Notes under the pieces: model-generated
Told to the model about the DNA's origin: nothing
The model's input: only the letters and a program-made list of their open reading frames with translations
Databases searched by the model: none
Made by a program: the position numbers and the translations under genes
NCBI GenBank assembly: GCA_965226205.1
Contig: CBDDCJ010000023.1
Coordinates: forward strand, 151,901 to 215,900
Origin: Opitutales bacterium
GTDB taxonomy: Bacteria > Verrucomicrobiota > Verrucomicrobiia > Opitutales > UBA2987
Direction: 5' to 3'
DNA length: 64,000 bases
Part shown: positions 367 to 34,420 of the stretch, piece after piece
Position numbering within the stretch: position 1 is the stretch's first letter
Layout: every line of letters starts with the position of its first letter

Positions 367-430
367 GCTGCGGTAATGAAGATGAGAGGAAGAAACAGGA
401 ATGATGCCGGCAACGCAAACCATTAAAGAG

Positions 431-462: not shown

Positions 463-567
463 TCTTTGCTTTGAGACTCTATTCAAACGAGGTTAGAACA
501 CCAGGGAAGACAATCCATAAAGTGAACCTTGGACTCTTAATAAAAGGTTATAACACAAAAAATTAAA

Positions 568-2553: not shown

Positions 2554-2577
2554 GAAAGACAGGCAGCCCAAAGGACA

Positions 2578-3648
2578 TTGGACACCGAACTGCTGGATTT
2601 TGACTTGCCGGAGGCGTGCATCGCGCAAACCCCGGCCTCGCGGCGTGACGATGCCAGGTTGTTGCTCGTCAACCGCCAAAACGGCCGCCTGGAACACCAT
2701 ATTTTTCGGGACTTGCCGGATTTATTGCCGGATGGCGGGCGGTTGTTCCGCAATAACGTGAAGGTCATCAAAGCCCGGCTGAGGGGCCGCAGACCGACCG
2801 GCGGAGAGGTGGAATGCCTGCTCCTTCATCCTGCCATCGGCAGGCCGAACCAATGGTGGTGCCTATTGAAGCCCGGCCGCAGGCTCAAACCGGGTTCCAC
2901 TTTCGGGTGCGAGGGCCAATATTCGGCCAGGGTGATGGCCAAATCGGATTCCGGCCAATACCGGGTTGGGTTTAATCTGGCAAACTCTGAAAGCATCTTG
3001 CAACTGACCCGACTAATGGGGGAAATGCCCCTGCCGCCCTATATTCGCCGCCAGAAACCCAATCCACTGGACTCGGAGCGTTACCAGACGGTCTATGCCC
3101 ATCCCGGGAAAGAGCTGGCGGCAGCGGCGCCCACCGCGGGCCTGCATTTCAGCCCCGAATTGATCGACCGTTTGGAGCGGCGGGGATTCTCTTTTCATGA
3201 CCTCACCCTGCAAATCGGGCTGGATACTTTTCAACTGGTGCAATGCGAAAAAATCGAAGACCACCCCATCCACAAGGAGAGTTATGAAATCCCAGGGTCC
3301 ACCTTATCAGCCCTCCAGCCCACTCCGGGGGCGGCCAGGATTGCCGTCGGCACCACTTCGGTCCGTGCCCTGGAGCACTCTTGGACCCATCGGCAGGCAA
3401 TTCCCGAAGTCGAGGAGACTTTCCGCTCGGAAGCCGATCTGTTGATTTTTCCGCCCTATCGGTTTAAGGTCGCCGATGCCCTATTGACCAATTTTCACCT
3501 GCCGCGATCAACCCTCCTTTGCCTCGTATCGGCTTTTCTCACACCGGGGGAGGCCACCGGCATTAAATGGTTGAAAGCCATCTATGGTGAAGCTATCTCG
3601 TTGGGTTACCGGTTTTTCAGCTACGGGGACGCCATGCTCATTCTATGA
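2578..3648 (+). CDS. queA: S-adenosylmethionine:tRNA ribosyltransferase-isomerase
   Basis: TTG start; LPPYI, RYQTVYA, AAPTAGLHF, AVGTTSVRALE, TNFHLPRSTL, YRFFSYGDAMLI. Confidence 0.96.
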   Translation: MDTELLDFDLPEACIAQTPASRRDDARLLLVNRQNGRLEHHIFRDLPDLLPDGGRLFRNNVKVIKARLRGRRPTGGEVECLLLHPAIGRPNQWWCLLKPGRRLKPGSTFGCEGQYSARVMAKSDSGQYRVGFNLANSESILQLTRLMGEMPLPPYIRRQKPNPLDSERYQTVYAHPGKELAAAAPTAGLHFSPELIDRLERRGFSFHDLTLQIGLDTFQLVQCEKIEDHPIHKESYEIPGSTLSALQPTPGAARIAVGTTSVRALEHSWTHRQAIPEVEETFRSEADLLIFPPYRFKVADALLTNFHLPRSTLLCLVSAFLTPGEATGIKWLKAIYGEAISLGYRFFSYGDAMLIL

Positions 3649-3679
3649 ATCAGCCATTGAATTACATTTTGCCAATGCA

Positions 3680-3707
3680 GGCAACATTGACCGGGAATAA
3701 AGTCTAA
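3680..3707 (+). promoter_or_regulatory. Putative ECF-sigma autoregulatory promoter
   Basis: GGCAAC (3680-3685), 16-nt spacer, GTCTAA (3702-3707), directly upstream of the ECF sigma gene; resembles the GGAAC-N16/17-GTC ECF consensus. Confidence 0.4.
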
Positions 3708-3709
3708 AA

Positions 3710-4237
3710 ATGGATGCTCCCAAACAGGTAAACCCACATTTGGATTTTAACGAACTGGTGAAAAATTATTATACGCCGCTCTTCCGTTTTGCCTACAGCC
3801 TGGCCGGAAATGAGGACGACGCCTGCGATCTTACCCAGCAGACGTTCTACATCTGGGCCACGAAGGGGTCTTCCCTGCGGGATGCCTCCAAGGTGAAGTC
3901 TTGGCTTTTTACCTCGCTCTACCGCGAGTTCCTGAGGGTGCGCCGCCGGGGCAGAAACATGATCTCTTACGAACCCGAACTGCTGGAATCTGAAATGCCC
4001 GCCGTGACGCCCGATTACGTGTCTTCGCTCGATGCCGTCGGGGCCGTCAAAGCGCTCGCCGAGGTGGATGAAATTTACCGCGCGCCGATAACATTGTTTT
4101 ACCTCAAAGACTTGTCCTACAAAGAGATAGCGGCAGCTTTGGAATTGCCCATCGGCACCGTCATGTCCCGCCTCTCAAGGGGCAAGGCGCAATTGAAAGA
4201 AATTTTGTTAGGCAAAGAAAAGGGGTTAAAAGTTTGA
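3710..4237 (+). CDS. ECF RNA polymerase sigma factor (RpoE-like)
   Basis: 175 aa; region 2 (DACDLTQQTF, KSWLFT) and region 4 (LSYKEIAAALELPIGTVMSRLSRGK). Confidence 0.93.
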   Translation: MDAPKQVNPHLDFNELVKNYYTPLFRFAYSLAGNEDDACDLTQQTFYIWATKGSSLRDASKVKSWLFTSLYREFLRVRRRGRNMISYEPELLESEMPAVTPDYVSSLDAVGAVKALAEVDEIYRAPITLFYLKDLSYKEIAAALELPIGTVMSRLSRGKAQLKEILLGKEKGLKV

Positions 4238-5025
4238 TGGATAAAAACGAAGCCAGAGAAATCCTGCGGGCCTATCGAGCCGATCTTTTCGAAATGGACG
4301 ACCCGGATATCAAGGAGGCCCTGCGCATGGCCGCGGAAGATCCGCAATTGCAGGCTTTGCTGAAAGAAGAACAAGCCTTCGACCGCGCCTTCTCGGAAGT
4401 ATTGAAGGATATCGAACCGCCGTCCGATTTGATGGAAAAGATTTTAAGCGGGGCGCCAGCCGCTGCCGAAACCCAAACGAAACAAGCCAAAATTATCTGG
4501 TGGAGACATCCCGGGACATGGGCGGCGGCCGCTTGTTTAACGGCTCTCCTGGTAGTGGCGGCGGTTTTCACCCAAAACAAATCAATACCGCCCCCCGGCG
4601 GGGAGATTGCCCTGTTGGATAATTTTGCCCGGGCCGCGGCCATGCATTCGCCCACCATTCGGACTCTGGATTTTGGAGACACCAAAATCGATGACCTGAA
4701 CACATTCCTGATCAAAGAAGGAGCGCCCAACCCGCATCGGCACCCCCACCCCCAGAGGCTTCCGGAAAATATGGATCAGTTGTCCGGATTGGGATGTTTA
4801 ACCTTTAATTGGGAAAATTCCCAAGTCGGCGTTCTCTGCCTCAAAGGCAGCAAATTTTACAATTTATACGTGCTCAACCGGGAGGGAATCGACTCCCAAC
4901 GCAATCAAAAAAAACCGGCCTACAAGCAATTCGGCGATTACGCCACGGCCCTCTGGATGGAGGGCAACCTGATCTACGTATTGACAGTTGAAGGCAAAAC
5001 GGAAGACTTGAGCCCGCTGCTTTAG
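4234..5025 (+). CDS. Membrane-bound anti-sigma factor (DUF3379-like)
   Basis: Overlaps the sigma stop; soluble N-terminal domain, one TM helix (WAAAACLTALLVVAAVF), extracytoplasmic C-terminal domain. Confidence 0.75.
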   Translation: MMDKNEAREILRAYRADLFEMDDPDIKEALRMAAEDPQLQALLKEEQAFDRAFSEVLKDIEPPSDLMEKILSGAPAAAETQTKQAKIIWWRHPGTWAAAACLTALLVVAAVFTQNKSIPPPGGEIALLDNFARAAAMHSPTIRTLDFGDTKIDDLNTFLIKEGAPNPHRHPHPQRLPENMDQLSGLGCLTFNWENSQVGVLCLKGSKFYNLYVLNREGIDSQRNQKKPAYKQFGDYATALWMEGNLIYVLTVEGKTEDLSPLL

Positions 5026-9706: not shown

Positions 9707-10183
9707 ATGGGTTTACCCACTCAATCCTACCGTTGTCGAATTTCCACTCTGTTTTTGTGGCTGCTGGGGGCTATCCTGATCCTGGATATAGCGCGGATGT
9801 GGATATGGGTGGGCATTGCTCTCGAACAGATTGAACTGTTTCGCAACCTCAACCTGATCACCATGGTCGCCCTTTTCAGTTCCCTCCTCCTGGTTTTGAC
9901 ATTGAGGAGCGAGATCAGTCCGGAAGGAATCACCAGCTACAATTCCCTCGGCGCGACCCTCTTTATTCCCTGGGCGGAAATCAAGAATGCCAGCCGGCAG
10001 AATATACTCGGGTTGGGTTATTTCCGCATTGTCGATCATGATGGGGACTGCATTTACGTGGCCCGGTATCTCTCCCGCCAACGTGAGTTCGAGGCGATTG
10101 TTTCCGCCATCACGGATAAAAACAATCCCCTGCACCGGTGTATCCTCAATATAGACACTGAGGAAGCGCAGGAGACGGAATAA
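9707..10183 (+). CDS. Hypothetical membrane protein, possible bacterial PH-like domain
   Basis: Two hydrophobic N-terminal segments followed by ISPEGI...FIPWAEI, a bPH-like pattern. Confidence 0.55.
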   Translation: MGLPTQSYRCRISTLFLWLLGAILILDIARMWIWVGIALEQIELFRNLNLITMVALFSSLLLVLTLRSEISPEGITSYNSLGATLFIPWAEIKNASRQNILGLGYFRIVDHDGDCIYVARYLSRQREFEAIVSAITDKNNPLHRCILNIDTEEAQETE

Positions 10184-10195
10184 CGACACCGGCCA

Positions 10196-10789
10196 CTATG
10201 CCTTCCCGGCCACGCGGCAGGTCATGGCATGGCAAAGGGCAACCCCGGTGGCATCGGCCTCGTCGTGCGTGAGGGTTTCGGTGAGTCCCAAAAGACTTTT
10301 CACGGTCCTGGCCACCTGGATTTTACTGGCCCGCCCGTAACCTACCACCGCCTGCTTGACGCGTAACGGCGGATACTCGAAAACGGGCAATTTACGCACC
10401 GCGGCCGCTGTGATGGCAGCCCCGCGGGCAGCTCCCATTACCAGGGCAATTTGAACATTCTGCACGTAAATGATCTGCTCGAGAGCGACGTGGTCCACCG
10501 GATACTGTTCCAGGACCTCGCTTACGGCCCGGAAAATTTCGGCCAGGCAATCCGGCATGGAAAGGGCGGGTTTCAGCTTAACGGTGCGACTGAATAAAAG
10601 CCGGGCGGGGCCATCCGCTTCGTTGTTAAGGACAGCCAGCCCGGTTCCGCGCAGGCTCGGGTCGATGCCCAAAATGGTTCCCCGAAAGGGCTTTCGGCTG
10701 ATAAGCGACCCGGCCTCCGGCCCTCGTGACGATGGCAGATTGCCTTTCAATTTGGCCGCCCATTGGGCTCTCATCGATTTTTTTGCCAT
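10196..10789 (-). CDS. ruvC: Holliday junction resolvase RuvC
   Basis: ILGIDPSLRGTG, VALEQ, EYPPLRVKQAVVGYGRASKIQV, HDEADA; basic N-terminal extension. Confidence 0.95.
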   Translation of the reverse strand: MAKKSMRAQWAAKLKGNLPSSRGPEAGSLISRKPFRGTILGIDPSLRGTGLAVLNNEADGPARLLFSRTVKLKPALSMPDCLAEIFRAVSEVLEQYPVDHVALEQIIYVQNVQIALVMGAARGAAITAAAVRKLPVFEYPPLRVKQAVVGYGRASKIQVARTVKSLLGLTETLTHDEADATGVALCHAMTCRVAGKA

Positions 10790-10794
10790 TGCGC

Positions 10795-11574
10795 TTATTT
10801 GAATGCCGCGGAGAAATTAAAGAACAGCTCGAAACCGACTAAGACAATAATAAACCAGATCGCGATTTCGAAGAATTTTTGGTTGATGTAGCTTATGGCA
10901 AAGCGGCCAAAAACGGCCCCCACAGCCGCCACCGGCGCAAAAACCAGGCTCAACCGCACGGTTTCATTCGTAATGATACCCAAATCTATTTGCAGTGGGA
11001 CTTTGCAGATATTCATGAGGATAAAAAACCAGGCGCTGGTCCCGATAAATGCCATTTTGGGCAACCCGATGGCAAGCAGGTAGAGAGCCGCAACCGGTCC
11101 GGCCCCATTGGCCGTCATAGTGGCGAATCCTCCCGCCAATCCCAATAGTGCGACGTAGCAAACGGAGTTAGGCATGCTATCCTGGCGGTTTTCCTTGAGG
11201 AACCGAGCCATTTGCCAACGGCGAAAAAAATGCAACCCGGACATGCCCAGTAGAATGATGCCGATAAGCCGGCGCACGCCATCATTATCGATATTACCGA
11301 GAGAAAAATAACCGATCAATATACCCACCAGCGACCAGGGCAGAAGTTTCAGCAGGGAGGGCCAGTGGACATGCCCCCTGTAAATCGTTATGGCAACCAG
11401 GTCGGTGCAAAACAGCACGATAAGCATAATGCCGATCGATTCCCTGGCCGGAAAAGCAATGGCATACAAGGCAATGGTCAAGTTGCCCATTCCGGGAATG
11501 CCACCCTTGCTCAGACCGATGAGCAAAGCGCCCAACCAGCCGAGAATCCATTGCCAGGGCTCCATTTCAATCAT
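10795..11574 (-). CDS. Sulfite exporter TauE/SafE family membrane protein
   Basis: GLSKGGIPG, AGGFATMTANGAGP, multiple TM helices. Start placed at ATG 11574; the track's 11640 extension overlaps non-coding-looking sequence. Confidence 0.85.
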   Translation of the reverse strand: MIEMEPWQWILGWLGALLIGLSKGGIPGMGNLTIALYAIAFPARESIGIMLIVLFCTDLVAITIYRGHVHWPSLLKLLPWSLVGILIGYFSLGNIDNDGVRRLIGIILLGMSGLHFFRRWQMARFLKENRQDSMPNSVCYVALLGLAGGFATMTANGAGPVAALYLLAIGLPKMAFIGTSAWFFILMNICKVPLQIDLGIITNETVRLSLVFAPVAAVGAVFGRFAISYINQKFFEIAIWFIIVLVGFELFFNFSAAFK

Positions 11575-11691
11575 CGCGGTTCCGCTCAATGCAGGAAGAC
11601 CGGGCCAGCCTATTAATGGCCTTGGGGTATCTCGCGCCAATTGTAAATGCCAGCAAATCCCACAGATGGAGACCTCTTATCCGAATCCGCA

Positions 11692-15742: not shown

Positions 15743-17263
15743 TTATGAGGAATCCTGCCCCTGCCCCTGCCCCAAGGTCGATTCCAGCAAGAGTTGCTCA
15801 CTCCAATCCTCAGCCGGACGCAAATCCGCCAGAATTCCCTTTCGCATGACTCCGATGGTGTGGCAGACGCCGAGGAGTTCCGGAAGGTAGGAACTGACGA
15901 AAATAATCGCCTTGCCCTTGGCGGCCAATTCGTTGATGAGCCGGTAAATCTGCTCTTTGCTGCCGATGTCGATCCCGCGCGTCGGCTCATCCAGCAAATA
16001 AATTTCGGCATCGTGATGGAGAAGCCGTCCGAGGGCGATCTTCTGCTGGTTTCCGCCGGACAGTTCGGCTGCCGGCTGGCTAGCGTGGCGGGCTTTCACT
16101 TGTAGCTTTTTCAGCCAAATTCCGGCCGAATGCCGCAACCTCCGGGAATTGATGAAACCGAAGCGGGTGTAGGGCTCATAGCGAGTGGCGCATAAGTTTT
16201 CGGCCAGACTGCGGTTGAGCATGAGGCCCTCATCTTTTCTGTTTTCACTGAGTAAACCGATGCCATTGGCAAGACGAGCCAAGGGAGTGGAGTGGGTTTT
16301 ATCCTTGCCGTGAATCCAGACCACGCCCCCGCCAATGGCGTCGAGGCCGAAAACGGCCCGCAAAGTTTCCGTGCGCCCGGCCCCCACCAGTCCGGCCAAT
16401 CCAAATACCTCGCCCCGGCGAAGTTTAAGGGAAACCTGGCGCGGTTTTTTTACTCCGGCTAATTTATCCAATTCCAAAATGGTTTCACCGGGTGTATTTT
16501 CCGGTTTGGGGAAAATCTCATTGACTTCGCGCCCCACCATGAGGCGGACGATTTGCCTGAATTCGGTGGCCGCCATATCTCCGCCGCCCACCTTTTGTCC
16601 GTCCCGCAATACCGTAAAGCGGTCGGCCACCTCCCGGCATTCCTCCAGAAAATGGCTGATGTAAATGATCCCCACCCCTCTTTCCTTAAGCTTCCGAATG
16701 ACCGCGAACAAAATCTCCACATCGCCGCCGGAAAGACTGCTGGTGGGCTCGTCCATAATCAATAACCGGGTCGAGCCGAGACAGGCGCGGGCAATTTCAA
16801 TGATCTGCCGCTGGGCCAGGGAAAGACGGCGCACCGGTTCGTCCAGGGGCAGGTTTTCGTGATGCAAGGCGGCCAGGGCCTCCCTCGCCCTCCGGCGGCG
16901 CTCCTTGCGGTCCAGCCAACCCCACCGGGACGGCTCGGCCCCCAGGAGCAAGTTTTCCTCCACGCTCAAATGCAGGGCCAGGGTGAGTTCCTGGTAAATG
17001 GTGGAAATGCCCATCCGCCGGGCATGGATCGGACTGCCCGCCACCACCGGTTTCCCATCCAGTTCAAATGAGCCCGAATCCACTGGATATGCGCCGCTGA
17101 GAATATTGACCAAGGTGCTTTTACCGGCCCCGTTTTCTCCGATCAGGGCGTGCACCTCGCCTTCCTGAACCTCCAGATCGACATTCCGCAAGGCCTGGGT
17201 GGCGCCGAAATGCTTGTAAATTCCGTGAACCGAGAGCAGTGGGGTTTTGTTCCGAAAGCGCAA
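15743..17263 (-). CDS. Sugar ABC transporter ATP-binding protein (RbsA-like, two ABC domains)
   Basis: GENGAGKST, LIMDEPT, LSGGNQQK, LLDEPTRGIDIG. Confidence 0.95.
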   Translation of the reverse strand: MRFRNKTPLLSVHGIYKHFGATQALRNVDLEVQEGEVHALIGENGAGKSTLVNILSGAYPVDSGSFELDGKPVVAGSPIHARRMGISTIYQELTLALHLSVEENLLLGAEPSRWGWLDRKERRRRAREALAALHHENLPLDEPVRRLSLAQRQIIEIARACLGSTRLLIMDEPTSSLSGGDVEILFAVIRKLKERGVGIIYISHFLEECREVADRFTVLRDGQKVGGGDMAATEFRQIVRLMVGREVNEIFPKPENTPGETILELDKLAGVKKPRQVSLKLRRGEVFGLAGLVGAGRTETLRAVFGLDAIGGGVVWIHGKDKTHSTPLARLANGIGLLSENRKDEGLMLNRSLAENLCATRYEPYTRFGFINSRRLRHSAGIWLKKLQVKARHASQPAAELSGGNQQKIALGRLLHHDAEIYLLDEPTRGIDIGSKEQIYRLINELAAKGKAIIFVSSYLPELLGVCHTIGVMRKGILADLRPAEDWSEQLLLESTLGQGQGQDSS

Positions 17264-17278
17264 TTTTTGATTACCCCG

Positions 17279-18283
17279 TTATTGCAGGTATTCGTCAAGG
17301 TCGGGAAAGAGCCGCGACTGGATTTCCATCTGCTGGAAATTGTCAATGGTGACAAGGCTCGCCCCGGTATCGAACCTTTTTTGGGTGGTCAAGCCCTCCA
17401 GATGATCGACGATCAGTTTCACCCCCAGATAGCCCATGCGAAAGGGGTCCTGGATAACAATGGCGTGCAAATCACCGGCCAGGAGTGCGTCCACATTTTG
17501 TTTGCCTCCATCGAAACCGATAAACTTCACCTTCGAGGCCCGGCCGATAGAACGCAGGGCCAAAAGCATCCCATTGGTGCCGGATTCGTTGGGCGTAAAA
17601 ATGCCGTCCACCTCGTTCCCGAATCGTTGCAGGAGGTTTTGGGCGGCGGTATAGGCGGTTTCCCGGGTGGGTCCGGCATATTGATTGGAGGAAAGCACCC
17701 GGATAGCGTCAAATTTCGCAATCGCGTCCAAAAAGCCGGCCTCGCGGGCTTCCGTGCTGGCCGATCCCACCATCAGGCGCAGGAGGATAACATTGCCCTT
17801 GCCTTTCAATAGCTCGCCAAGGTGTTCACCGGCCAGGCTGCCCCCATGATAATTGTCGGTCGAGGCAAAGCTCACATAGTCGGAGTAATCGAGACCGGAA
17901 TCGATAATAACGACCGGGATGCCGGCCGCCTGCGCCTTCCGCACCGGCGGGATGAGCGCTTTGCGGTCGAGCGGCGCCAGGACGATGCCGCTGACTTTCT
18001 GACCAATAAAATTTTCCACCACATTGATCTGGGCCGCCCTGTCGTCCTCCAGCAGCGGGCCTTTCCAGATAACTTGCACCTTGGTGCCCAATGCGTTAAA
18101 TTCCCGCTCGGCCTTAACCACCCCGGCATGAATGGACTTCCAGAAAACGTGCGTCGTGCCCTTGGGAATGACGGCAATTTTATGAACCTTTTCGGAATCG
18201 CGCGAACATTGGCAGCCGGACAATGAAGCCAGGGCCAGCACAATGGCAAAAACACTTTTCATTATCCGGGAAAAATTTGGCAT
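17279..18283 (-). CDS. Sugar ABC transporter substrate-binding lipoprotein (RbsB-like)
   Basis: Lipobox LSGC; IAVIPKGTTHVFWK, VVIIDSG, STDNYHGG, IGFD, IQDPFRMGY. Confidence 0.92.
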   Translation of the reverse strand: MPNFSRIMKSVFAIVLALASLSGCQCSRDSEKVHKIAVIPKGTTHVFWKSIHAGVVKAEREFNALGTKVQVIWKGPLLEDDRAAQINVVENFIGQKVSGIVLAPLDRKALIPPVRKAQAAGIPVVIIDSGLDYSDYVSFASTDNYHGGSLAGEHLGELLKGKGNVILLRLMVGSASTEAREAGFLDAIAKFDAIRVLSSNQYAGPTRETAYTAAQNLLQRFGNEVDGIFTPNESGTNGMLLALRSIGRASKVKFIGFDGGKQNVDALLAGDLHAIVIQDPFRMGYLGVKLIVDHLEGLTTQKRFDTGASLVTIDNFQQMEIQSRLFPDLDEYLQ

Positions 18284-24135: not shown

Positions 24136-25959
24136 GAGGCTGTCCCAAAAACCCGAATTTTGCGAGGGGATTTTGAAGAGTGTTCATTTTAGTGGTATTT
24201 TCTTTTGGGAGGGGGTGACTTTGCTCTCCTATGACGTTAGGATTCTGGTTTTGGGGTCCGTTTGCCTGGTTTTCTTTGTATGGGCCGACAGTAGGCCTGT
24301 GAAAAAGTATTGTCCTTGCTTTTCCGCTCTTTATTTAGGCCGCCGCTTTGGTTTTTAGTTCATCTTGCTGGGCCAGCATCTTGGCCACTTTCCATAGATT
24401 GTGCGAGAGGACCGACCAGGCTACGCTGATCGAGCGGTTGGCAAAGCCTTTGCTGCGCAATCGCCCGGCCTGCCAGCGATTCTTCAATACCCCGATCCGC
24501 CCTTCGGTGCTGGCCCGGCGCTTTTGCAATTGCCTGAAGTGTGGTTCCTCCATCCGTTTTTTCAACTGCTTCGGATCGCGTGGACAGAGCGCATCGTAGA
24601 TGCCCTCCTGGGCTAACTGCCGGCGGGCCCGCTGGGAGGCGAATCCCCGGTCCGCGCACATGGCCGCTATGGGTTCGGCTAGGTTGAAGCGGTTCTGTCT
24701 TTGCAAACTCTCTTGCATTTGTTCATTTTCGCTTGGCGTCCGGCTGCCGTAGAGTTTCCAGTCCAGCAGGTATCCTTCAACGCTTTCACCCAAAAACAGG
24801 GTGTTGCCAAACTCAACCTCTTGGCCCGCTTTGCCTCGCACAATCACCTGCGCATTGGGTTCGTAAACACTCAAAACTTTCTCTGCGTTTTTCACCTGGC
24901 GGCCGCCAATGATTCGCTCGTGCGCTTGCTTGATGACCACCGGGATTAGCTCGCTCATGCGCTCCATCCGGGTAAGGATCTGTTGGACCTGTTTTTCGCT
25001 GTAATCGCTTTGCTCCCAGCAGGCTTGCAATAATTCCCGGTGACTGCGGGCATGCTCCCCGATCCGTTTGAGCAGCTTTTTCATCTGCCTCAAGATACCC
25101 TTGCGTTGCCGCGCGCTGTCCTTTCGCCGCCGGCTGTGGGTCATCTGTATGCACAGCCGATTCATCTGCCGAGCCAAGGGCTCCGGTTCGATCGGCATGC
25201 GATGGCGCAAACCGGCCTTCTCACGGATCAGCCGGATCGCTTTGAGCAGCGTGCCCGCTACATCCTTGAGCAGCACCCAGTCCGTCGGCCAATGAATGTT
25301 GACCTCCAAACAGGTGCCGTCGATCAGGCAAATGGTGGTGTCTATCGGCTTGTCCAATCCCACCACCTGCCGGGCCAGATCGGCATCGCCCACAACCTCA
25401 GTCAAGGTCCGGTGCAAGGCCCTCAACTGCTCTTCGCTGAAAAACTTCGAGGCCCGTTCCAGGGTGCTCTTGGAGATGCCCCTTATGCCGTCGATATGGC
25501 GGACACGACAAAAGTCAGCCAACAGATCGCTGCTGCCCAGAGCCCTCGACAAATGCCGAAACGAAATCCCACCGAGCAGATAACGCAGCGTTTCCATACG
25601 CAACGCCTTGAGGGCAAAATTAGCCCGCTTTTGCCGGGCCTTTACACTCATTGGCTGGCCTCTTTCCAAGGCCAGATCAACGCCCTGCGATTCCACCTCC
25701 GAATCGATCAGCAGCCGGTCGATACGCTCGATGGTGGCGCGAAAGTTATCGTAATCGAGGCAACGGTCGACCACAGTTAAAGCTGGACGCAGGAGGCATT
25801 GGATGGCTATATTTTTCATAGAAAGGGCTATATTGATTTTCGCTAACGCAATTATAGAACCCTTTTTTAGCCGGATCGAGCAAAAAAATGCTCTTTCCGG
25901 CTATTTTTATAAACGTCATCCAGTTGACTACAAAATCTTTATATTTTTGGGACAGCCTC
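24136..25959 (-). mobile_element. IS5-family insertion sequence, copy 1 (1824 bp)
   Basis: Terminal IRs GAGGCTGTCCCAAAA (24136) and TTTTGGGACAGCCTC (ending 25959); same length as and near-identical to 31683-33506, in inverted orientation. Flanks CTAAATA / TATGGTA are not a direct repeat. Confidence 0.93.
24335..25819 (-). CDS. IS5-family DDE transposase (494 aa)
   Basis: DDE motifs LIDGT, CADRGF, STEGRIG; IHWPTD..LL and GKAGQEVEFG typical of long IS5-type transposases. Confidence 0.9.
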   Translation of the reverse strand: MKNIAIQCLLRPALTVVDRCLDYDNFRATIERIDRLLIDSEVESQGVDLALERGQPMSVKARQKRANFALKALRMETLRYLLGGISFRHLSRALGSSDLLADFCRVRHIDGIRGISKSTLERASKFFSEEQLRALHRTLTEVVGDADLARQVVGLDKPIDTTICLIDGTCLEVNIHWPTDWVLLKDVAGTLLKAIRLIREKAGLRHRMPIEPEPLARQMNRLCIQMTHSRRRKDSARQRKGILRQMKKLLKRIGEHARSHRELLQACWEQSDYSEKQVQQILTRMERMSELIPVVIKQAHERIIGGRQVKNAEKVLSVYEPNAQVIVRGKAGQEVEFGNTLFLGESVEGYLLDWKLYGSRTPSENEQMQESLQRQNRFNLAEPIAAMCADRGFASQRARRQLAQEGIYDALCPRDPKQLKKRMEEPHFRQLQKRRASTEGRIGVLKNRWQAGRLRSKGFANRSISVAWSVLSHNLWKVAKMLAQQDELKTKAAA

Positions 25960-26245
25960 TATGGTAGTGGAGTAGTTTGAAACCGAATTGTAGCAGACTA
26001 TTTTCTTGGTTTAATCATTGGAGTGCCTGAGATTTATACTTACCTCATATTAATGAATATATCGATTGTTTACACTATTGGAGGATGGCCGATTTATAAA
26101 ACAGCTAATAGGGTTGTATATCAATCCATTGATAGAGAACCCTTCAATATCTATATGAAAGCGAATGTATTTGTGATTGTTGAAATGGACGGGGAAAACT
26201 GGACAGTGGAATAAGGTGGTCTTGAACCACTAAATCCTCTAACCT

Positions 26246-26551
26246 ATGAATGTTATTAAATCACGAAAGAGAAGACAATACAGTGCTGAGTTTAAAGCCC
26301 GAGTGGCCCTGGAAGCCATCAGGGGCGCTCATACCATCAACGAGATCGCCGGTCGTTTTGAGGTGCATCCCAACCAGGTGACCCAATGGAAGAAGCAGCT
26401 TTTGCAGGGAGCAACGGAGCTGTTTTCGCGCCAGCGGCAGACTCTCAGCAAGGACAACGAGACGGAAAAAGATCACCTTTACCAGGAGATTGGAAAGCTG
26501 AAAGTAGAATGCGATTGGCTAAAAAAAAAGTCTGAACAACTCGGTTGGTGA
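26246..26551 (+). CDS. IS3-family transposase OrfA (HTH)
   Basis: RRQYSAEFKARVALEA...EIAGRFEVHPNQVTQWKK; ends WLKKKS over an A9G run (26521-26530). Confidence 0.9.
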   Translation: MNVIKSRKRRQYSAEFKARVALEAIRGAHTINEIAGRFEVHPNQVTQWKKQLLQGATELFSRQRQTLSKDNETEKDHLYQEIGKLKVECDWLKKKSEQLGW

Positions 26552-26561
26552 GAGGCGCAAG

Positions 26562-27425
26562 ATGGTGCAACCACTTCAAAGAAAAATCAGTATCGGCAGG
26601 CAATGTCAGTTGCTGGGGCTGGCCCGCGGCAGCTATTACTATCGGGCCCGTGCCCAGTGCGAGCAGAACGTTCTCTACATGCATCGCATGGATGAGCTCT
26701 ACACCCAATATCCGTTTTTTGGTTCTCGCCGGATGACCCAGTGGCTGCGTCGAGAGGGCCATGCAGTGGGACGAGGCCGCATCCAGCGGCTCATGCGCCA
26801 AATGGGCCTGGAGGCTATTTATCCGCGTCGAAACTTGAGCCAGGGGCACCGGCAGCACCGCATTTTCCCTTATCTGCTGCGGGGTTTGGCGGTCGAGCGG
26901 CCCGACCAGGTATGGTGCAGCGACATCACTTACCTGCGGCTGAGCCGAGGATTCCTTTTCTTGACCGTGGTGTTGGACTGGTTCAGCCGCTACGTGTTGA
27001 GCTGGCAGCTTTCCAACACCCTGGAGAGCCGCTTCTGTGTGCTCGCCCTGGAGGAAGCTCTGAGGCGGGCCCAACCTCAAATCTTCAACACCGATCAAGG
27101 CAGCCAGTTTACTGGCAGCGAGTTCACCTCGGTGCTGGGGCAAGCCGGGGTGCGCATCAGCATGGACGGGCGTGGCCGCTACCTGGACAACATATTTGTT
27201 GAACGCTTTTGGAGAACCCTCAAGTATGAAGACATTTACCTGCGCGAATACGCCACGGCAAAGGAAGCCAGCGAAGGGATAGCCCGCTACCTGGACTTCT
27301 ACAACCACCTGCGCCCCCACCAAGCCCTGGGCTACCGGACCCCGGCCGAAGTCCATGCAATCGGAGCAAAACCAACCTCCCCGCCAATACAGCTTGCGGG
27401 CACCTGCGTGCCCGTCTTTGGCTAA
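26562..27425 (+). CDS. IS3-family transposase OrfB (integrase core)
   Basis: RQCQLLGL, YPFFGSRRM, QVWCSDITY, DWFSRYV, FNTDQGSQF, DNIFVERFWRTLKYE, YNHLRPHQAL. Frame is open from 26523. Confidence 0.92.
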   Translation: MVQPLQRKISIGRQCQLLGLARGSYYYRARAQCEQNVLYMHRMDELYTQYPFFGSRRMTQWLRREGHAVGRGRIQRLMRQMGLEAIYPRRNLSQGHRQHRIFPYLLRGLAVERPDQVWCSDITYLRLSRGFLFLTVVLDWFSRYVLSWQLSNTLESRFCVLALEEALRRAQPQIFNTDQGSQFTGSEFTSVLGQAGVRISMDGRGRYLDNIFVERFWRTLKYEDIYLREYATAKEASEGIARYLDFYNHLRPHQALGYRTPAEVHAIGAKPTSPPIQLAGTCVPVFG

Positions 27426-27776
27426 GGACAAAATATATTTTTAAAAAATAATATGAACACGATTTCCACCTTAATCCCACGTCAAAATTGTCCAAACAAC
27501 CCCGTCCACTTCATGTTATCAGTGTAATACGGCTTGAAAGGAGCAAAATTGGATCGAAATATTTGAATGTAGTTATTTTCAACGATTATGAATTTTCATA
27601 TGGGAAATTTCGTAAAATTAATTGCCAACATGCTTGAAATGGGCAAGATGCAACCGTTCAGGCGAAAAGACGACCCGTTTCAATGTATTCGAAGATTAAA
27701 TGGAAACCATATAAAGGATGGGAGAATATCAGGAATTAACTGAGTTATAATCAGACACAACTACCGAAGAAGAAAT

Positions 27777-29141
27777 ATGGAAACCGGAAAGGATACAGGG
27801 AGACGGGGGATCGTTAAACGATTGAGGAAATTAAGGAAAAGCTGGGACAAGGTTTATTTCATAATGGCTATAGCTATGGTGATATTTGCTTACGGTATGG
27901 CGGTCGGAAGGTTTGAGATATTTCCTTATCAAATAGTGAAGAGTTCTGCGAAGACGGCTAGAAACTGGATAATCTTTTATAAGCACTATCTGGGGATAAA
28001 ACCGATAAAACATATAAGCAAGGCCCGGCACAAAGGAGAAACCATAGAAACTTATCTTCCGGACAAAACCTATGAAGGAGTTACCTTTATCGTAAGTATG
28101 TGGGATCATACCCTCGGCATGAAATTAATCGATATGGATGGTTCGGTGATTCATAAATGGAGGGTATCATTCAGTGAGACTTTCTCCGAAGAATTCCAGA
28201 AGGGGATTAGGGAAATCGATGATTGGGATGTAGATATCCATGGAACCCTTTTGTATCCAAACGGCGATGTAGTTTTTAATTTTGCACGTAAGGGGCTGGT
28301 GAAAATTGATAAATGGTCGAAAGTTATCTGGAAGCTGCCCAACAGAACTCATCATTCCATATTTGAGGACACTGAAGGTAACTTGTGGGTGCCTGCAACC
28401 AAAACACATAGTCATGTGTTGAACCGATTTCCTCTATTGAAGGCACCAATCCAAGAAGATTTGATACTCAAAATATCGCCTTCAGGGAATATTTTAAAGC
28501 AAATCTCTATTCTTGATATCTTCTATAATTCAGGACAGGAGGGGGTACTTTTTGCGAATGGGCATTTCAAACCCAGTCAAATAGCAAGAGACATCACGCA
28601 TTTAAACGACATCGAGATTCTAGATGAATCCATGGCAGATCAATTTCCTTTATTTGAAGCTGGCGATATATTGATAAGTTTGAGGCACCTAAATCTGATT
28701 ACGGTTATCGATCATGTAACAGAAAAGATAAAATGGTCGATGACAGGGCCCTACATTCGGCAACATGATCCCGACTTTCTTAGCAACGGGCAGATTATGG
28801 TATTTGATAATCGCACTGATGGTTCGGGGGGGGATATTCTGGGTGGCAGCCGCATTCTTAGCATTGACCCGGTTATGCGAAAAGTGCATACCATCTATAA
28901 AGGAGGCCCCCAGAACAAGTTTTATACGAAAGTTCGAGGCAAACAGCAACAGCTTCCCAACGGAAATATTCTAATTACCGAGCACGACGCCGGAAGAGTG
29001 TTTGAAGTCGCTTCATCCGGTGAAATCGTATGGTCCTACCATAACAGGTATGATGAGGACGAAGTATACGAAATTACTCAAGCAACGCGACTGGAGCGTG
29101 ATTACATTACATTTACAGAAGTAAAAGTACCTGAAAACTGA
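27777..29141 (+). CDS. Arylsulfate sulfotransferase (ASST, PAPS-independent, beta-propeller), N-terminally membrane-anchored
   Basis: One TM helix near the N-terminus, then THHSI, DITHLNDI, ISLRHL, RQHDPDF, VFDN, QQLPNGNILITE: His/Asn/Arg/His motifs in ASST order. Confidence 0.8.
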   Translation: METGKDTGRRGIVKRLRKLRKSWDKVYFIMAIAMVIFAYGMAVGRFEIFPYQIVKSSAKTARNWIIFYKHYLGIKPIKHISKARHKGETIETYLPDKTYEGVTFIVSMWDHTLGMKLIDMDGSVIHKWRVSFSETFSEEFQKGIREIDDWDVDIHGTLLYPNGDVVFNFARKGLVKIDKWSKVIWKLPNRTHHSIFEDTEGNLWVPATKTHSHVLNRFPLLKAPIQEDLILKISPSGNILKQISILDIFYNSGQEGVLFANGHFKPSQIARDITHLNDIEILDESMADQFPLFEAGDILISLRHLNLITVIDHVTEKIKWSMTGPYIRQHDPDFLSNGQIMVFDNRTDGSGGDILGGSRILSIDPVMRKVHTIYKGGPQNKFYTKVRGKQQQLPNGNILITEHDAGRVFEVASSGEIVWSYHNRYDEDEVYEITQATRLERDYITFTEVKVPEN

Positions 29142-29171
29142 AACAGATGTAAAGATAATTGAATTTGAGCT

Positions 29172-29444
29172 ATGAATGCAATACGGATTACAATGGAAAT
29201 TTGGCAGACCGTTCTTTTATTTGATTTGAGCGGCTTTTCCAATGCAGTCGCTTACATCGGGCCTGGTGGAGGCATTACGCTGTTGGGCGCTTTGTTTGCC
29301 GTGCTACTTGCAATATTGCTCGTAGTGGGCGGTATCCTCGTATGGCCCGTCCGGGTTTTATTAAGGCGTATGAAACGCAAGGCCAGGCCTCCCGAAGATG
29401 CAGAAGAGGGAGCGCCGGAAAGTGAAGATGGCACGGAATGTTGA
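29172..29444 (+). CDS. Small membrane protein with AYIGPG motif
   Basis: AVAYIGPGGG followed by one long TM helix, basic RRMKRK and an acidic tail. Alternative start 29193. Confidence 0.7.
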   Translation: MNAIRITMEIWQTVLLFDLSGFSNAVAYIGPGGGITLLGALFAVLLAILLVVGGILVWPVRVLLRRMKRKARPPEDAEEGAPESEDGTEC

Positions 29445-30202
29445 ACATTGTTTTCCAGTTGTTCACCGCTATCGATTTATGGATTGCATTATTTCTGCCG
29501 TTGTATGGGCGCTTATTGCTTTGGGGCGCGGTCGCGGGAGTGGCAGCCATGGGCATTTATGCCGCCGTATCTAACCAGAGCGCCATAGCGGCGCTGAAGA
29601 CGAAAACTAAAAACCTCAGACGCCAGATGCTTGATCCTTCACTTGAGAAGGGCTCAGAGTTTGCCGCATTAGCGAAGGCCAATCTCAAGACATCACTGTT
29701 ATATCTGGGTAAAGTGATTGGCCCGGCCTTGCTTTCAACGCTTCCAGTGTTGCTCTTAGCTGTGTGGCTTGATACTTATCATGGTTATGAACTTGCGGAA
29801 GATCGGGAAGAGGTATTCGTTAGTATAGTTCCCTCTCATCTTGATTTCGATATTATCCCCGCGGAGATAGTGCGCCTTAAAGAGATGGGCGTTGTGAACA
29901 TCGAGCCGGTAGAGCGCGGGGACGCCATTACGGTTAGAACAGGCGGCGAGACGATTTATTCCGGCCCACTTTTAGAAAATCCGGTACCTGTTATCAAAAA
30001 AAAGAATTGGTGGAACCTGTTGCTTGCGTCCCAAGCCGGATATATCGTATCCACTTCAGCGATCGAGGGAATTCATGTGAATTTGGCAAGAAAGAAAGTG
30101 TTAGGACGATTCCCTGATTGGGCGGCGGGATGGGAGGGGGCATTTTTTATGAGTGTGCTTATAACGACATTAGCGTTTAAAGCTGTGTTCAAGATTCATT
30201 GA
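29438..30202 (+). CDS. Hypothetical membrane protein (DUF106/EMC3-like topology in the N-terminal half)
   Basis: TM, basic coiled coil (ALKTKTKNLRRQML), TM, soluble domain, C-terminal TM; start overlaps the previous gene by 7 bp. Confidence 0.6.
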   Translation: MLNIVFQLFTAIDLWIALFLPLYGRLLLWGAVAGVAAMGIYAAVSNQSAIAALKTKTKNLRRQMLDPSLEKGSEFAALAKANLKTSLLYLGKVIGPALLSTLPVLLLAVWLDTYHGYELAEDREEVFVSIVPSHLDFDIIPAEIVRLKEMGVVNIEPVERGDAITVRTGGETIYSGPLLENPVPVIKKKNWWNLLLASQAGYIVSTSAIEGIHVNLARKKVLGRFPDWAAGWEGAFFMSVLITTLAFKAVFKIH

Positions 30203-30243
30203 AAGAGACGAACCCAGTCAGTCACTGACTGTGGGTAATTGCA

Positions 30244-31335
30244 ATGCAGGTATCACGCTTTAAAGACTTTCTCGGAGGGTTGGCAGCACGAAATACCGCG
30301 TTTTTTCTGAAGTTGGGCAATATCGAATCTCGATGGCTGAAAGATGCCATTAAGGAAAAGGAGGTTGACCGGCCAATATATATATGCGGATTAGCGCGCT
30401 CAGGGAGCACGATCCTGCTTGAGCTGCTGGCGGCCCATCCCGATGTGGCATCCCATCAGTACAAGGATTTTCCGCTCGTTTTTACGCCATTCTGGTGGAA
30501 CTGGTTTCTGAACCGAGCGAGTAGCGGAAAGGATGAGCTTGTTGAACGAGCGCACAAAGACCGAATCCAAGTTTCGCCGGATAGCCCTGAAGCGATGGAG
30601 GAGATGCTTTGGATGGCTTTTTTTTCACGGAGCCATGATGCAGCGGCCAGTCAAATTATTGGCGCAAGTGACCGTAAACCGGAATTCGATCATTTTTACC
30701 GGGAGCACATAAGAAAGATTCTGTATTTGAGGGATGGGAGAAGGTACATTGCCAAGGGTAATTATAATATCAGCAGGCTTGGGTATTTGGCCGATCTATT
30801 TCCGGATGGGCGTTTCCTTATTCCCGTTCGCGATCCGGCCAGTCATATCGCATCGCTTATGAAACAGCATGAGAATTTTTGTGATGCGGAAACGCGGGAT
30901 CCCAAGGTTCTGGCCTATATGCGGAGAGCGGGGCATTTTGAATTTGGCCTGGACCGAAGAGCCATTAATTTTGGTCGTAGCGATGCGTTACAACGGATAG
31001 AGAACCTGTGGAAGCAGGGGCAGGAAATCAGGGGTTGGGCTGCTTATTGGGCGTCATTACATTCATTTGTGGCAGATCTCTTTGAGAGCGAAGAGCCGGC
31101 AGCGGATATGATGCTGCTAATAGATTACGGCGCTTTCTGTAAAGAACCTGTCAGGATGCTGCAACGGATTTATGCTCATTGTCAGCTTGAAGCTGGAGAT
31201 AGTGTTATTCGGGAGCAAGCATCTCGGATAAGCGCTCCCGATTATTACAATGCCGGTTTTACCGACAGCGAGATAGAGATTATTAATGAGGAAACGGCCG
31301 AAATCGCGGAGCGAATCCAGAGGCTGATTTCGTAA
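30244..31335 (+). CDS. PAPS-dependent sulfotransferase
   Basis: 5'-PSB loop RPIYICGLARSGSTILLELL and 3'-PB motif IPVRDPASHIAS; no signal peptide. Confidence 0.88.
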   Translation: MQVSRFKDFLGGLAARNTAFFLKLGNIESRWLKDAIKEKEVDRPIYICGLARSGSTILLELLAAHPDVASHQYKDFPLVFTPFWWNWFLNRASSGKDELVERAHKDRIQVSPDSPEAMEEMLWMAFFSRSHDAAASQIIGASDRKPEFDHFYREHIRKILYLRDGRRYIAKGNYNISRLGYLADLFPDGRFLIPVRDPASHIASLMKQHENFCDAETRDPKVLAYMRRAGHFEFGLDRRAINFGRSDALQRIENLWKQGQEIRGWAAYWASLHSFVADLFESEEPAADMMLLIDYGAFCKEPVRMLQRIYAHCQLEAGDSVIREQASRISAPDYYNAGFTDSEIEIINEETAEIAERIQRLIS

Positions 31336-31682
31336 TGGGAATGGAAATATTTACGGCTAATCTTACTTGTTAACCCATCAGCCTAAACGTTACGGCAATC
31401 GGCCGCAATAGACCTTTGTGTCGTATTCGAAATGGATCAGACCATCCACCTCGCGCCGGTCGAAAATTTCATTCATTCGTTTCAGCATGGGCTCGTAATT
31501 GGGATGATCGGGGGCTGGGGTATAGGAAGAGGAAAACAAACGTCCGGTCAAACCGTCGCGGTTTAAAGGCTGTATATATTCAAATTCGCCATATTTAATT
31601 TGGGTATGGCCGAAAAATTCTTGCATCTCCTCAAGGCCCAAACCACGATGGAGAACCTTTCCATATTCGATGCCGTATTTTA

Positions 31683-33506
31683 GAGGCTGTCCCAAAAATA
31701 TAAAGATTTTGTAGTCAACTGGATGACGTTTATAAAAATAGCCGGAAAGAGCATTTTTTTGCTCGATCCGGCTAAAAAAGGGTTCTATAATTGCGTTAGC
31801 GAAAATCAATATAGCCCTTTCTATGAAAAATATAGCCATCCAATGCCTCCTGCGTCCAGCTTTAACTGTGGTCGACCGTTGCCTCGATTACGATAACTTT
31901 CGCGCCACCATCGAGCGTATCGACCGGCTGCTGATCGATTCGGAGGTGGAATCGCAGGGCGTTGATCTGGCCTTGGAAAGAGGCCAGCCAATGAGTGTAA
32001 AGGCCCGGCAAAAGCGGGCTAATTTTGCCCTCAAGGCGTTGCGTATGGAAACGCTGCGTTATCTGCTCGGTGGGATTTCGTTTCGGCATTTGTCGAGGGC
32101 TCTGGGCAGCAGCGATCTGTTGGCTGACTTTTGTCGTGTCCGCCATATCGACGGCATAAGGGGCATCTCCAAGAGCACCCTGGAACGGGCCTCGAAGTTT
32201 TTCAGCGAAGAGCAGTTGAGGGCCTTGCACCGGACCTTGACTGAGGTTGTGGGCGATGCCGATCTGGCCCGGCAGGTGGTGGGATTGGACAAGCCGATAG
32301 ACACCACCATTTGCCTGATCGACGGCACCTGTTTGGAGGTCAACATTCATTGGCCGACGGACTGGGTGCTACTCAAGGATGTAGCGGGCACGCTGCTCAA
32401 AGCGATCCGGCTGATCCGTGAGAAGGCCGGTTTGCGCCATCGCATGCCGATCGAACCGGAGCCCTTGGCTCGGCAGATGAATCGGCTGTGCATACAGATG
32501 ACCCACAGCCGGCGGCGAAAGGACAGCGCGCGGCAACGCAAGGGTATCTTGAGGCAGATGAAAAAGCTGCTCAAACGGATCGGGGAGCATGCCCGCAGTC
32601 ACCGGGAATTATTGCAAGCCTGCTGGGAGCAAAGCGATTACAGCGAAAAACAGGTCCAACAGATCCTTACCCGGATGGAGCGCATGAGCGAGCTAATCCC
32701 GGTGGTCATCAAGCAAGCGCACGAGCGAATCATTGGCGGCCGCCAGGTGAAAAACGCAGAGAAAGTTTTGAGTGTTTACGAACCCGATGCGCAGGTGATT
32801 GTGCGAGGCAAAGCGGGCCAAGAGGTTGAGTTTGGCAACACCCTGTTTTTGGGTGAAAGCGTTGAAGGATACCTGCTGGACTGGAAACTCTACGGCAGCC
32901 GGACGCCAAGCGAAAATGAACAAATGCAAGAGAGTTTGCAAAGACAGAACCGCTTCAACCTAGCCGAACCCATAGCGGCCATGTGCGCGGACCGGGGATT
33001 CGCCTCCCAGCGGGCCCGCCGGCAGTTAGCCCAGGAGGGCATCTACGATGCGCTCTGTCCACGCGATCCGAAGCAGTTGAAAAAACGGATGGAGGAACCA
33101 CACTTCAGGCAATTGCAAAAGCGCCGGGCCAGCACCGAAGGGCGGATCGGGGTATTGAAGAATCGCTGGCAGGCCGGGCGATTGCGCAGCAAAGGCTTTG
33201 CCAACCGCTCGATCAGCGTAGCCTGGTCGGTCCTCTCGCACAATCTATGGAAAGTGGCCAAGATGCTGGCCCAGCAAGATGAACTAAAAACCAAAGCGGC
33301 GGCCTAAATAAAGAGCGGAAAAGCAAGGACAATACTTTTTCACAGGCCTACTGTCGGCCCATACAAAGAAAACCAGGCAAACGGACCCCAAAACCAGAAT
33401 CCTAACGTCATAGGAGAGCAAAGTCACCCCCTCCCAAAAGAAAATACCACTAAAATGAACACTCTTCAAAATCCCCTCGCAAAAATCACCCTTTTGGGAC
33501 AGCCTC
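31683..33506 (+). mobile_element. IS5-family insertion sequence, copy 2 (1824 bp)
   Basis: IRs GAGGCTGTCCCAAAA / TTTTGGGACAGCCTC; flanked by TATTTTA at 31676-31682 and 33507-33513. Confidence 0.95.
31823..33307 (+). CDS. IS5-family DDE transposase (494 aa), copy 2
   Basis: Identical to copy 1 except EPD vs EPN; at least one synonymous difference (CTA vs CTG Leu). Confidence 0.9.
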   Translation: MKNIAIQCLLRPALTVVDRCLDYDNFRATIERIDRLLIDSEVESQGVDLALERGQPMSVKARQKRANFALKALRMETLRYLLGGISFRHLSRALGSSDLLADFCRVRHIDGIRGISKSTLERASKFFSEEQLRALHRTLTEVVGDADLARQVVGLDKPIDTTICLIDGTCLEVNIHWPTDWVLLKDVAGTLLKAIRLIREKAGLRHRMPIEPEPLARQMNRLCIQMTHSRRRKDSARQRKGILRQMKKLLKRIGEHARSHRELLQACWEQSDYSEKQVQQILTRMERMSELIPVVIKQAHERIIGGRQVKNAEKVLSVYEPDAQVIVRGKAGQEVEFGNTLFLGESVEGYLLDWKLYGSRTPSENEQMQESLQRQNRFNLAEPIAAMCADRGFASQRARRQLAQEGIYDALCPRDPKQLKKRMEEPHFRQLQKRRASTEGRIGVLKNRWQAGRLRSKGFANRSISVAWSVLSHNLWKVAKMLAQQDELKTKAAA

Positions 33507-33513
33507 TATTTTA

Positions 33514-33811
33514 GAGGCTGTCCCAAAGTTATAACCATTTGTTTTACAGTAAGTTAACTTGTTTATAAAGCTGTCATAAAGACCGTTTTTAGGGGATTTT
33601 GGGCAATTTCGATGTCTATAACACCGTCAGCCTTTCTCTTGTTTTGCATATTCAAATACAATTCTACCATAGACCTCTGTCTGACGCGATTATATTTATA
33701 ACGAATAGAGGCCTTATACAGCGTTTTTGACGGAATTGAATGACTTACGTTCCCTTACAGTTCGGAGTCGAATATCTCAATTTGCAAAATTCGGGTTTTT
33801 GGGACAGCCTC
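33514..33811 (+). mobile_element. 298-bp non-autonomous element (MITE) with IS5-type ends
   Basis: Begins GAGGCTGTCCCAAA, ends TTTTTGGGACAGCCTC; AT-rich interior with no ORF in the track; flanked by TATTTTA (33507-33513, 33812-33818). Confidence 0.88.
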
Positions 33812-34420
33812 TATTTTAAGAGCATTTCTTCATAATCGCTTAAAAATGGCGTTGAGAGATGCCTGCGGGCGTTCCACAGCACAGCCGCATAACCATCCGG
33901 TTTCAGAACCCTTTCAAATTCACGGCGGGCCGGCACCGGCTCGAACCAGTGAAAAGCCTGGGCCGCCGTAACCAGATCCACCGACGACTTGGGAAGATGG
34001 GTATTTTCGGCCTGTCCGTCGATCGCCCGAAATGGATCGAATCGAGTTAAAAATGCCTCCCCCGCCTCGCGCATTTCCCGATTGGGCTCCACCCCCCAAA
34101 CCGGGTAATTCCGCTCCAACAGCAGTTTGGCAAAGAGGCCGGTGCCGCACCCGATGTCGGCAATGACCGAATCCCGTGACAAACCGCATTTTTCTTCCAG
34201 GAAGTCGATTGCCTGGGGCGGATAAGAAGGTCTATATTTGCGGTAATCATCGACGCGGCTGGAAAATCTGGCGGTGGGATCGAGCATCTTTTTTGAAGAT
34301 TTTGATAACCGTTTCAGCCGGAACCGCAATTAGATACGAAGGCCGCAGGTCGTTTTTTCTGGAATTGTGCCGCTCTCTTCTATAAATCCAATCAGCTTTG
34401 AACCATTGACTGACTCTGAC

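Follow-up and report, generated by a model that had tools for sequence, protein, structure and literature searches.

An insertion sequence and a miniature inverted-repeat element stacked at a single TATTTTA target in a marine Opitutales bacterium

Background

Double insertion at one target, with the target-site duplication (TSD) kept in the junction between the two elements, has been described for the P element, hobo and R1 in Drosophila, and tandem dimers are known to arise where an element has a marked target preference, bacterial insertion sequence (IS) dimers being cited as well (McGurk & Barbash 2018, PMC5932611). Here we analyse a stretch of 64,000 nucleotides from an Opitutales bacterium (GenBank assembly GCA_965226205.1, contig CBDDCJ010000023.1, positions 151,901 to 215,900 of the forward strand), hereafter the window, in which an autonomous IS and a MITE (miniature inverted-repeat transposable element) are stacked at one heptamer within a gene for a class I S-adenosylmethionine (SAM)-dependent methyltransferase. 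As in the dimers cited above, the junction keeps the TSD, and its spacer has the length and motif of the ordinary duplications. Unlike them, the stack combines two different elements, it is found in three allelic states in natural strains, and inverted and MITE-MITE versions occur too. This is not a new mechanism: double insertion at one target was already described and knowledge of transposition is unchanged. What the three natural alleles document is the base-perfect pile-up of a transposon and its miniature derivative under a short and strict target, that is, a clean natural bacterial example of double insertion, by an IS and its own MITE, with intermediates. A previously unnamed and very abundant IS/MITE pair is also defined in marine Opitutales, and the practical value of the analysis lies in annotation (IS family, target rule and MITE consensus).

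Abutted ends with a spacer of duplication length are also seen in the junctions between inverted repeats (IR-IR) and in the (IS)2 dimers of IS30, IS256, IS911 and IS21, which are reactive transposition intermediates. These intermediates are made by the transposase and join the two ends of one element, whereas the present junction connects two different elements, is stably inherited and has an IS-only counterpart. A reactive IR-IR junction or (IS)2 dimer was rejected as an account of the present site, since the site joins two distinct elements which, as the IS-only allele shows, arrived or left separately.

Structure and alleles of the stacked site

An earlier reading of the window from its letters alone (hereafter the original prediction) had proposed the layout TATTTTA, IS of 1824 bp, TATTTTA, MITE of 298 bp, TATTTTA, and a direct check of the coordinates bore it out exactly (Table 1). 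Even under a TA-NNN-TA constraint, the odds of meeting three identical heptamers by chance are about (1/64)^2. The termini of the MITE share 14 identical nucleotides with those of the IS and their subterminal similarity covers 27 nt at 85% on the left and 28 nt at 82% on the right, while the interior is unrelated to the IS and non-coding, with no open reading frame (ORF) of 50 aa or more in the 298 bp. Six occurrences of the 14-nt terminus are found in the window, where 0.7 would be expected, and two of them bound a second, inverted IS copy (copy 1, the stacked IS being copy 2). Shared terminus and duplication together form a 22-bp direct repeat, TTTTGGGACAGCCTCTATTTTA, which brackets the MITE. 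An Rfam scan of the region returned nothing real, with one sub-threshold match on the palindromic end-to-end junction.

The stack splits the methyltransferase gene, whose truncated ORF stops at a TAG built from the element terminus and TA. When position 31675 is joined to 33819 via a single TATTTTA, an uninterrupted minus-strand frame of 267 codons is restored. Its product aligns over 94% of its length with class I SAM methyltransferases of 253-254 aa (79% identity for the best match, about 50% for thousands of others) and matches Pfam Methyltransf_11 (1e-18). This frame and its homologues bear out the idea that the empty site rebuilds inside the methyltransferase ORF.

The empty allele is found in nature. 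In Logan contigs from runs X5-X8, position 31675 is followed directly by 33812, seven letters being common to the two sides; one of these contigs, of 656 bp, covers 180 nt on the left of the site and 476 nt on its right. Runs X1 and X2 contain the empty allele of a variant strain with a G-to-A change in the left flank, and the occupied left junction is also present in the same runs (short-read contig L011). The IS-only allele was recovered from a 378-kb contig of another long-read assembly (L081), reached through the truncated methyltransferase fragment. This contig is collinear with positions 29006-33513 of the window, gapless over 4508 nt at 99.56% identity, and resumes at 33784+; between the flanks it holds exactly 7 + 1824 + 7 bp and is without precisely the MITE and one heptamer. 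A closely related strain thus carries the IS alone at this site, and each of the three states is met in nature: empty (six runs), IS only (L081) and IS plus MITE (the window). The original prediction had called for two successive insertions, the second into the duplication of the first, and had suggested looking for empty or single-element alleles; both kinds were found (in the Logan contigs and in L081) and, as natural alleles of the same site, they support that claim. Because the empty, IS-only and IS plus MITE alleles all exist, the most likely order is that the IS came first and that the MITE then inserted into the right-hand copy of its duplication.

Table 1. Positions of the stacked site, of the interrupted gene and of related features (positions are those of the window unless a locus or contig is named).
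Feature	Position	Strand	Remarks
TSD copy 1, TATTTTA	31676-31682	none	sole heptamer in empty alleles
Autonomous IS, 1824 bp, ISNCY-like, IS5-related (copy 2)	31683-33506	+	transposase found unchanged at many places in three long-read metagenome assemblies
IS terminal inverted repeats, 15 bp, perfect, GAGGCTGTCCCAAAA	31683-31697 and 33492-33506
Transposase ORF, 494 aa, DDE_Tnp_1 type	31823-33307	+	only ORF of the IS
TSD copy 2, TATTTTA	33507-33513		spacer from IS right end to MITE left end
MITE, 298 bp	33514-33811	+	oriented as the IS
TSD copy 3, TATTTTA	33812-33818
Class I SAM-dependent methyltransferase, N-terminal part	33819-34287	-	likely start Met at 34287
Same methyltransferase, C-terminal part	31390-31675	-
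Second IS copy (copy 1)	24136-25959	-	inverted, 7 differences from copy 2
Stack: IS, TACATTA, MITE	L006 (= locus C17:784674)		order and orientation as in the window; triplicated (TACATTA/TAATGTA)
Stack: IS, TATAATA, MITE inverted	contig_4 (C04)		triplicated
Stack: MITE, TAACTA, IS	C17:719621		triplicated
Stack: MITE, TAACTA, MITE	C17:745159		triplicated
Stack: MITE, TAACTA, IS	C17:848625		outer flanks TAATTA and TATTATA, non-matching
Stack: IS, TAATTA, IS	C14:478078 and C10:246763		outer flanks without shown triplication
IS3-family element, 101-aa helix-turn-helix ORF	26246-26551
IS3-family element, 287-aa integrase-type ORF	26562-27425

A further version of the locus, the third in kind, was met in contig L080 (ERZ28669063 ctg5728, about 3700-4790 in window orientation). 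It shows first the left flank and TATTTTA, next a decayed left part of the IS (500 bp) and about 270 bp that resemble a remnant of an IS200-type transposase, with a GC hairpin; 216 bp of the left flank are then repeated and followed by TATTTTA and the right flank, these last three making up an empty-site junction. This is either a true rearrangement or a chimera of two haplotypes.

Target rule of the IS and the MITE

Scanning reference genomes gave 189 confirmed stretches of the transposase, of which the best 80 were retained; all 80 lie in one Opitutales metagenome-assembled genome (MAG) and form two subfamilies, with 100% and about 94% protein identity. For the census of insertion sites, 78 loci and the window were merged into 1.48 Mb of non-redundant sequence, which holds 94 complete elements (80 IS and 14 MITE). 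The TSD measures 6 bp in 27 of them and 7 bp in 32, and 35 have none. Fifty-eight of the 59 duplications read TA-N2-TA or TA-N3-TA, the exception being TAGGTG, and 12 of the 14 MITE copies have a TA...TA TSD of 6-7 bp. Among the unique termini (n = 212), 201 adjoin TA and 8 adjoin CA, and 193 of the 212 flanks read TA-N2/3-TA. Outside this core, C at -1 and G at +1 are mildly preferred (about 45%, against 26% in the background). The bias towards TA-NNN-TA that had been predicted from the two IS copies of the window is therefore upheld by the collected flanks, and the rule is widened to TA-N2/3-TA, with a duplication of 6 or 7 bp. The flank TATGGTA of copy 1 was also found as predicted, beside its left end; the other flank is TAAATA, so that this copy has no duplication.

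The original prediction had left room for an equivalent reading, in which TA belongs to the element ends and the duplication is only 3 bp long. At canonical sites, the two readings give indistinguishable sequence. One copy (L010) carries TAGGTG on both sides, with the left junction ...TG|GAGG, and the reading with TA in the element and a 2-3 bp duplication was rejected because this copy would then need a mutated end and a coincidental flank, whereas a 6-bp duplication accounts for it directly, and because termini that adjoin CA are met at both ends and in both subfamilies. We therefore favour duplications that are truly 6 or 7 bp long, with TA outside the element ends.

The termini that adjoin CA (e.g. 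C16:660233 15957-17761 and C13:465243 9861-11677) are found at both ends and in both subfamilies, which fits an inherited CA end variant less well; occasional non-canonical targets or local mutation fit better. Two copies have a TSD that is perfect but for one base (TATTATA/CATTATA and TAAATTA/CAAATTA), always the base adjoining the right end. As for the 35 of 94 elements without matching TSD, they still have TA-N2/3-TA on each flank, and several of their flanks recur at many places (e.g. cccacgatgTAACTAacttcgttg), a pattern suggestive of frequent recombination among copies and of insertion into other repeats.

Within the IS5 family, the IS5 group has a 4-bp YTAR target (ISfinder), and the subgroups of the family have duplications of 2-4, 8 or 9 bp. 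Other TA-centred targets are those of the IS630/Tc1-mariner elements (TA) and of piggyBac (TTAA). The present element shares with the IS5 group an IS4/IS5-type DDE transposase and a TA-based target which, with C before and G after it, looks like a split CTAG; it differs in having a duplication of 6 or 7 bp with two TA steps instead of 2-4 bp. The same two TA steps and the same length separate it from IS630/Tc1-mariner and piggyBac, with which it has the TA-centred target in common.

Classification of the transposase

The transposase gives a weak match to Pfam PF01609 (DDE_Tnp_1, IS4/IS5-type) over residues 359-475, with 27 bits against a cut-off of 23. Its best NCBIfam model is NF033593 (ISNCY_1), with 213.7 bits against a cut-off of 325 over model positions 54-443 of 444, followed by NF033578 (IS5_1), with 119.1 bits against a cut-off of 275; other IS5 models remain below 20 bits, and no IS5 equivalog model of NCBIfam was matched above its curated cut-off. 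Homologues at 64% identity carry the label "IS5 family" from the Joint Genome Institute (JGI), and the nearest annotated plasmid relatives, at 25-29% identity, are called "ISNCY family" and "ISNCY-like element ISRjo3" transposases by the Prokaryotic Genome Annotation Pipeline (PGAP). The IS5 label of the original prediction holds in the loose sense of an IS5-related element, and gives way to ISNCY as the better model, both scores being below their cut-offs.

With ISNCY-annotated IS, the element has in common a single DDE ORF, a length of 1.8 kb, ISNCY_1 as its best hidden Markov model and TA...TA duplications; it departs from them in a score below the cut-off and in its low identity to the named relatives. 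Two of these distant relatives were examined at their insertion sites. The Rhodococcus plasmid copy (L082, 890-2540) has the 6-bp TSD TAGCTA, with C before and G after it, and the Skermanella plasmid copy (L083, 1017-2593) has the 8-bp TSD TAGTACTA. A TA...TA target and a stagger of 6-8 bp thus characterise the wider ISNCY-annotated group. A duplication of 7 bp had seemed long for an IS5 element; this puzzle dissolves once the element is grouped with ISNCY-type elements of the same target. The ISDol1 group of ISNCY comprises elements of 1.6-1.9 kb with one DDE ORF, terminal inverted repeats and direct repeats of 6-7 bp according to ISfinder, and the present element agrees with this in its length, its ORF, its ends and its duplications; a literature search for ISDol1/ISNCY found no table of duplication lengths.

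Recurrence and origin of the stacks

Stacks recur in the MAG (Table 1): besides that of the window, the sample holds six abutments whose spacer measures 6-7 bp and one fused stack. Short-read contigs show further abutted ends, with the spacers TAAATTA, TAATTA, TAAATA and TATTTA. The sample contains about 4050 TA-N2/3-TA sites and about 110 elements, for which a uniform choice of sites predicts about 3 abutments. We counted seven independent stacks (five non-duplicate abutments in the MAG, a fused MITE::IS element and the stack of the window), or eight if the two possible duplicates of the MAG sample are counted instead. Six are direct and one is inverted, a bias that is not significant (P ~0.06), and more than 90% of the copies are not stacked. 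At the site in the window and at four further triplicated sites, the TSD in the junction equals the outer TSDs.

The anatomy of the site, its three alleles, the target rule and the recurrence of stacks were all observed directly, and we consider it very probable that the stack results from two independent transposition events at the same heptamer, an ordinary outcome under a strict target. The 1824-bp IS would have entered TATTTTA in the methyltransferase gene and duplicated the heptamer; in the lineage of the window, the 298-bp MITE, presumably mobilised in trans by the IS transposase, would then have entered the right-hand copy of this duplication and duplicated the heptamer again, hence three copies. 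At each step a staggered cut would allow each transposon 3' end to be joined 5' of a TA step, the two TA steps being 6 or 7 bp apart. Since TA is absent from the element termini, the only legal target adjoining a resident end is its own duplication, and under the strict TA-N2/3-TA target a second insertion at this place is bound to the register of the first. A genome holds about 100 copies or more, and stacks recur accordingly; a further insertion may be neutral for the host, the gene being already broken, which could be the reason why stacks persist. That the MITE follows the target rule of the IS supports its presumed mobilisation by the same enzyme; the presence/absence polymorphism at the site shows that the MITE is mobile and does not designate the responsible agent.

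Several points weigh against this account. The order of insertion rests on a single IS-only allele, and a precise loss of the MITE via the 22-bp repeat would give the same allele. The stack itself is known from assembled sequence. Stacks are 2-3-fold more frequent than uniform site choice predicts (P ~0.03 to 0.01), and a MITE takes part in six of the seven independent stacks although MITEs make up about 15% of the elements (P ~0.003). Something beyond pure chance contributes to the stacks. As for short reads, contigs built with k=31 are unable to link IS-specific to MITE-specific sequence across the 7-bp spacer, and one 39-nt contig that crosses the internal IS/MITE junction with one mismatch is not decisive.

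This excess is the first argument for the rival explanation that survives best, and which we nonetheless hold to be unlikely, namely that stacks are programmed, bound transposase or the terminus sequence itself drawing the incoming element to a resident end. The preference for C at -1 also points in this direction, since the terminus supplies this C in CCTC|TA, as do the direct orientation of most stacks and the abutted ends of the short-read contigs. However, the enrichment is modest and borderline, neither the orientation bias nor the small share of stacked copies argues for a programmed process, and relaxed selection at broken sites accounts for the excess equally well. Indeed, neutrality of a broken site, the C supplied by the terminus and a sampling centred on IS copies could produce such an excess without any dedicated mechanism. 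The likeliest reason for the richness in MITEs would be the loss of IS-IS tandems, in which direct repeats of 1.8 kb would recombine and inverted pairs would make long palindromes; assemblers may collapse IS-IS tandems too.

A second possibility, distinctly less probable, is that the stack is ancestral and that the IS-only allele descends from it, the MITE having been deleted precisely across the 22-bp direct repeats. The repeat is indeed present, and microhomology deletions are seen at other stack junctions (the 43-bp deletion and the chimeric right end of copy 1, both described below). Insertion by an element that has about 100 active copies or more is, however, usually a more frequent event than deletion over a 22-bp repeat, and an ancestral stack would still require two insertions at the same heptamer, so that the history would be altered and not the mechanism.

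The movement of IS and MITE as one composite, with its left end taken from the IS and its right end from the MITE, is very improbable. Fused forms do exist, such as a 2085-bp MITE::IS element bounded by TATTTA, and a unit MITE|TAACTA|IS is found at a second place with different outer flanks. But a composite would carry its old internal spacer along, whereas here the spacer equals the outer duplication, and the IS-only allele means that the two parts came or left separately, which contradicts this explanation at this locus. Finally, a collapsed or mis-joined repeat in the metagenome assembly, which the very high copy number of both elements and the confusing contig L080 (with its 216-bp flank duplication and possible chimerism) might suggest, is hardly credible given that the same layout occurs at four other sites of an independently assembled MAG, that the whole stack spans 2.1 kb, below typical long-read length, that the left junction is found independently in short-read contig L011, and that the IS-only and empty alleles match the coordinates to the base.

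Expansion of the elements and by-products of the stacks

The IS has expanded massively, as is seen in bacteria that are host-restricted or have recently been bottlenecked: the 1.36 Mb sampled from one Opitutales MAG contain at least about 95 of its copies. Over positions 31628-33874 of the window, word depth in runs X1-X8 reaches about 100-3700 in the IS and about 35-550 in the MITE, against 2-8 in the unique flanks. Relative to the flanks, the depth is higher by about 100-fold or more for the IS, and it is about 40-170 times theirs for the MITE.

Stacks seem to decay into new elements. The 2085-bp MITE::IS fusion (CBDDEL010000017.1, contig_17, about 874119-876203, in loci L014/L018), which has a TATTTA duplication, consists of the MITE, 6 bp and the IS, minus 43 bp across the internal junction; the deleted segment lies between CGCAAAA and CCCAAAA. 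With a left end from the MITE and a right end from the IS, it may be a new autonomous element whose leader derives from the MITE. A second case is the right end of copy 1 (24136-24163), where the final 28 nt match the MITE's right end at 100% identity. The switch from IS to MITE sequence occurs inside the shared TCGCAAAA, five of the seven differences between copies 1 and 2 are clustered in this subterminal right end, and no other chimera of this kind was seen in the sample of about 90 IS right ends. A microhomology deletion in a stack such as the present one (IS|MITE) would give exactly this structure, and copy 1 seems to be a product of that kind.

It is conceivable, although we would not expect it, that stacking is favoured by the transposase, resident ends attracting further copies and the stacks in turn yielding fused and end-swapped elements. 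If true, this would provide a concrete route, via microhomology deletions, for the exchange of ends between IS and MITE and for the birth of new autonomous variants.

In run X3, a joint between 33506 and 33550 (depth 10.5) connects the right end of the IS to position 37 of the MITE at TAAGTTA; elsewhere in the population, a MITE copy has received an IS at a TA-N3-TA site in its interior.

Other features of the window and of the sampled loci

An exact-protein look-up gave no match for the transposase of copy 1, for the diaminopimelate-decarboxylase-like neighbour or for P0124. Near IS copies, an overlapping pair of ORFs recurs at several loci (L003-L008, e.g. L003 1969-2679). Its members (201 aa, and 62 aa on the opposite strand) had no Pfam match, and the pair is probably another repeated element. 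An IS3-family element (26176-27518) lies 217 bp from IS copy 1, and the 1.36 Mb sampled from the MAG contain up to 14 copies of it.

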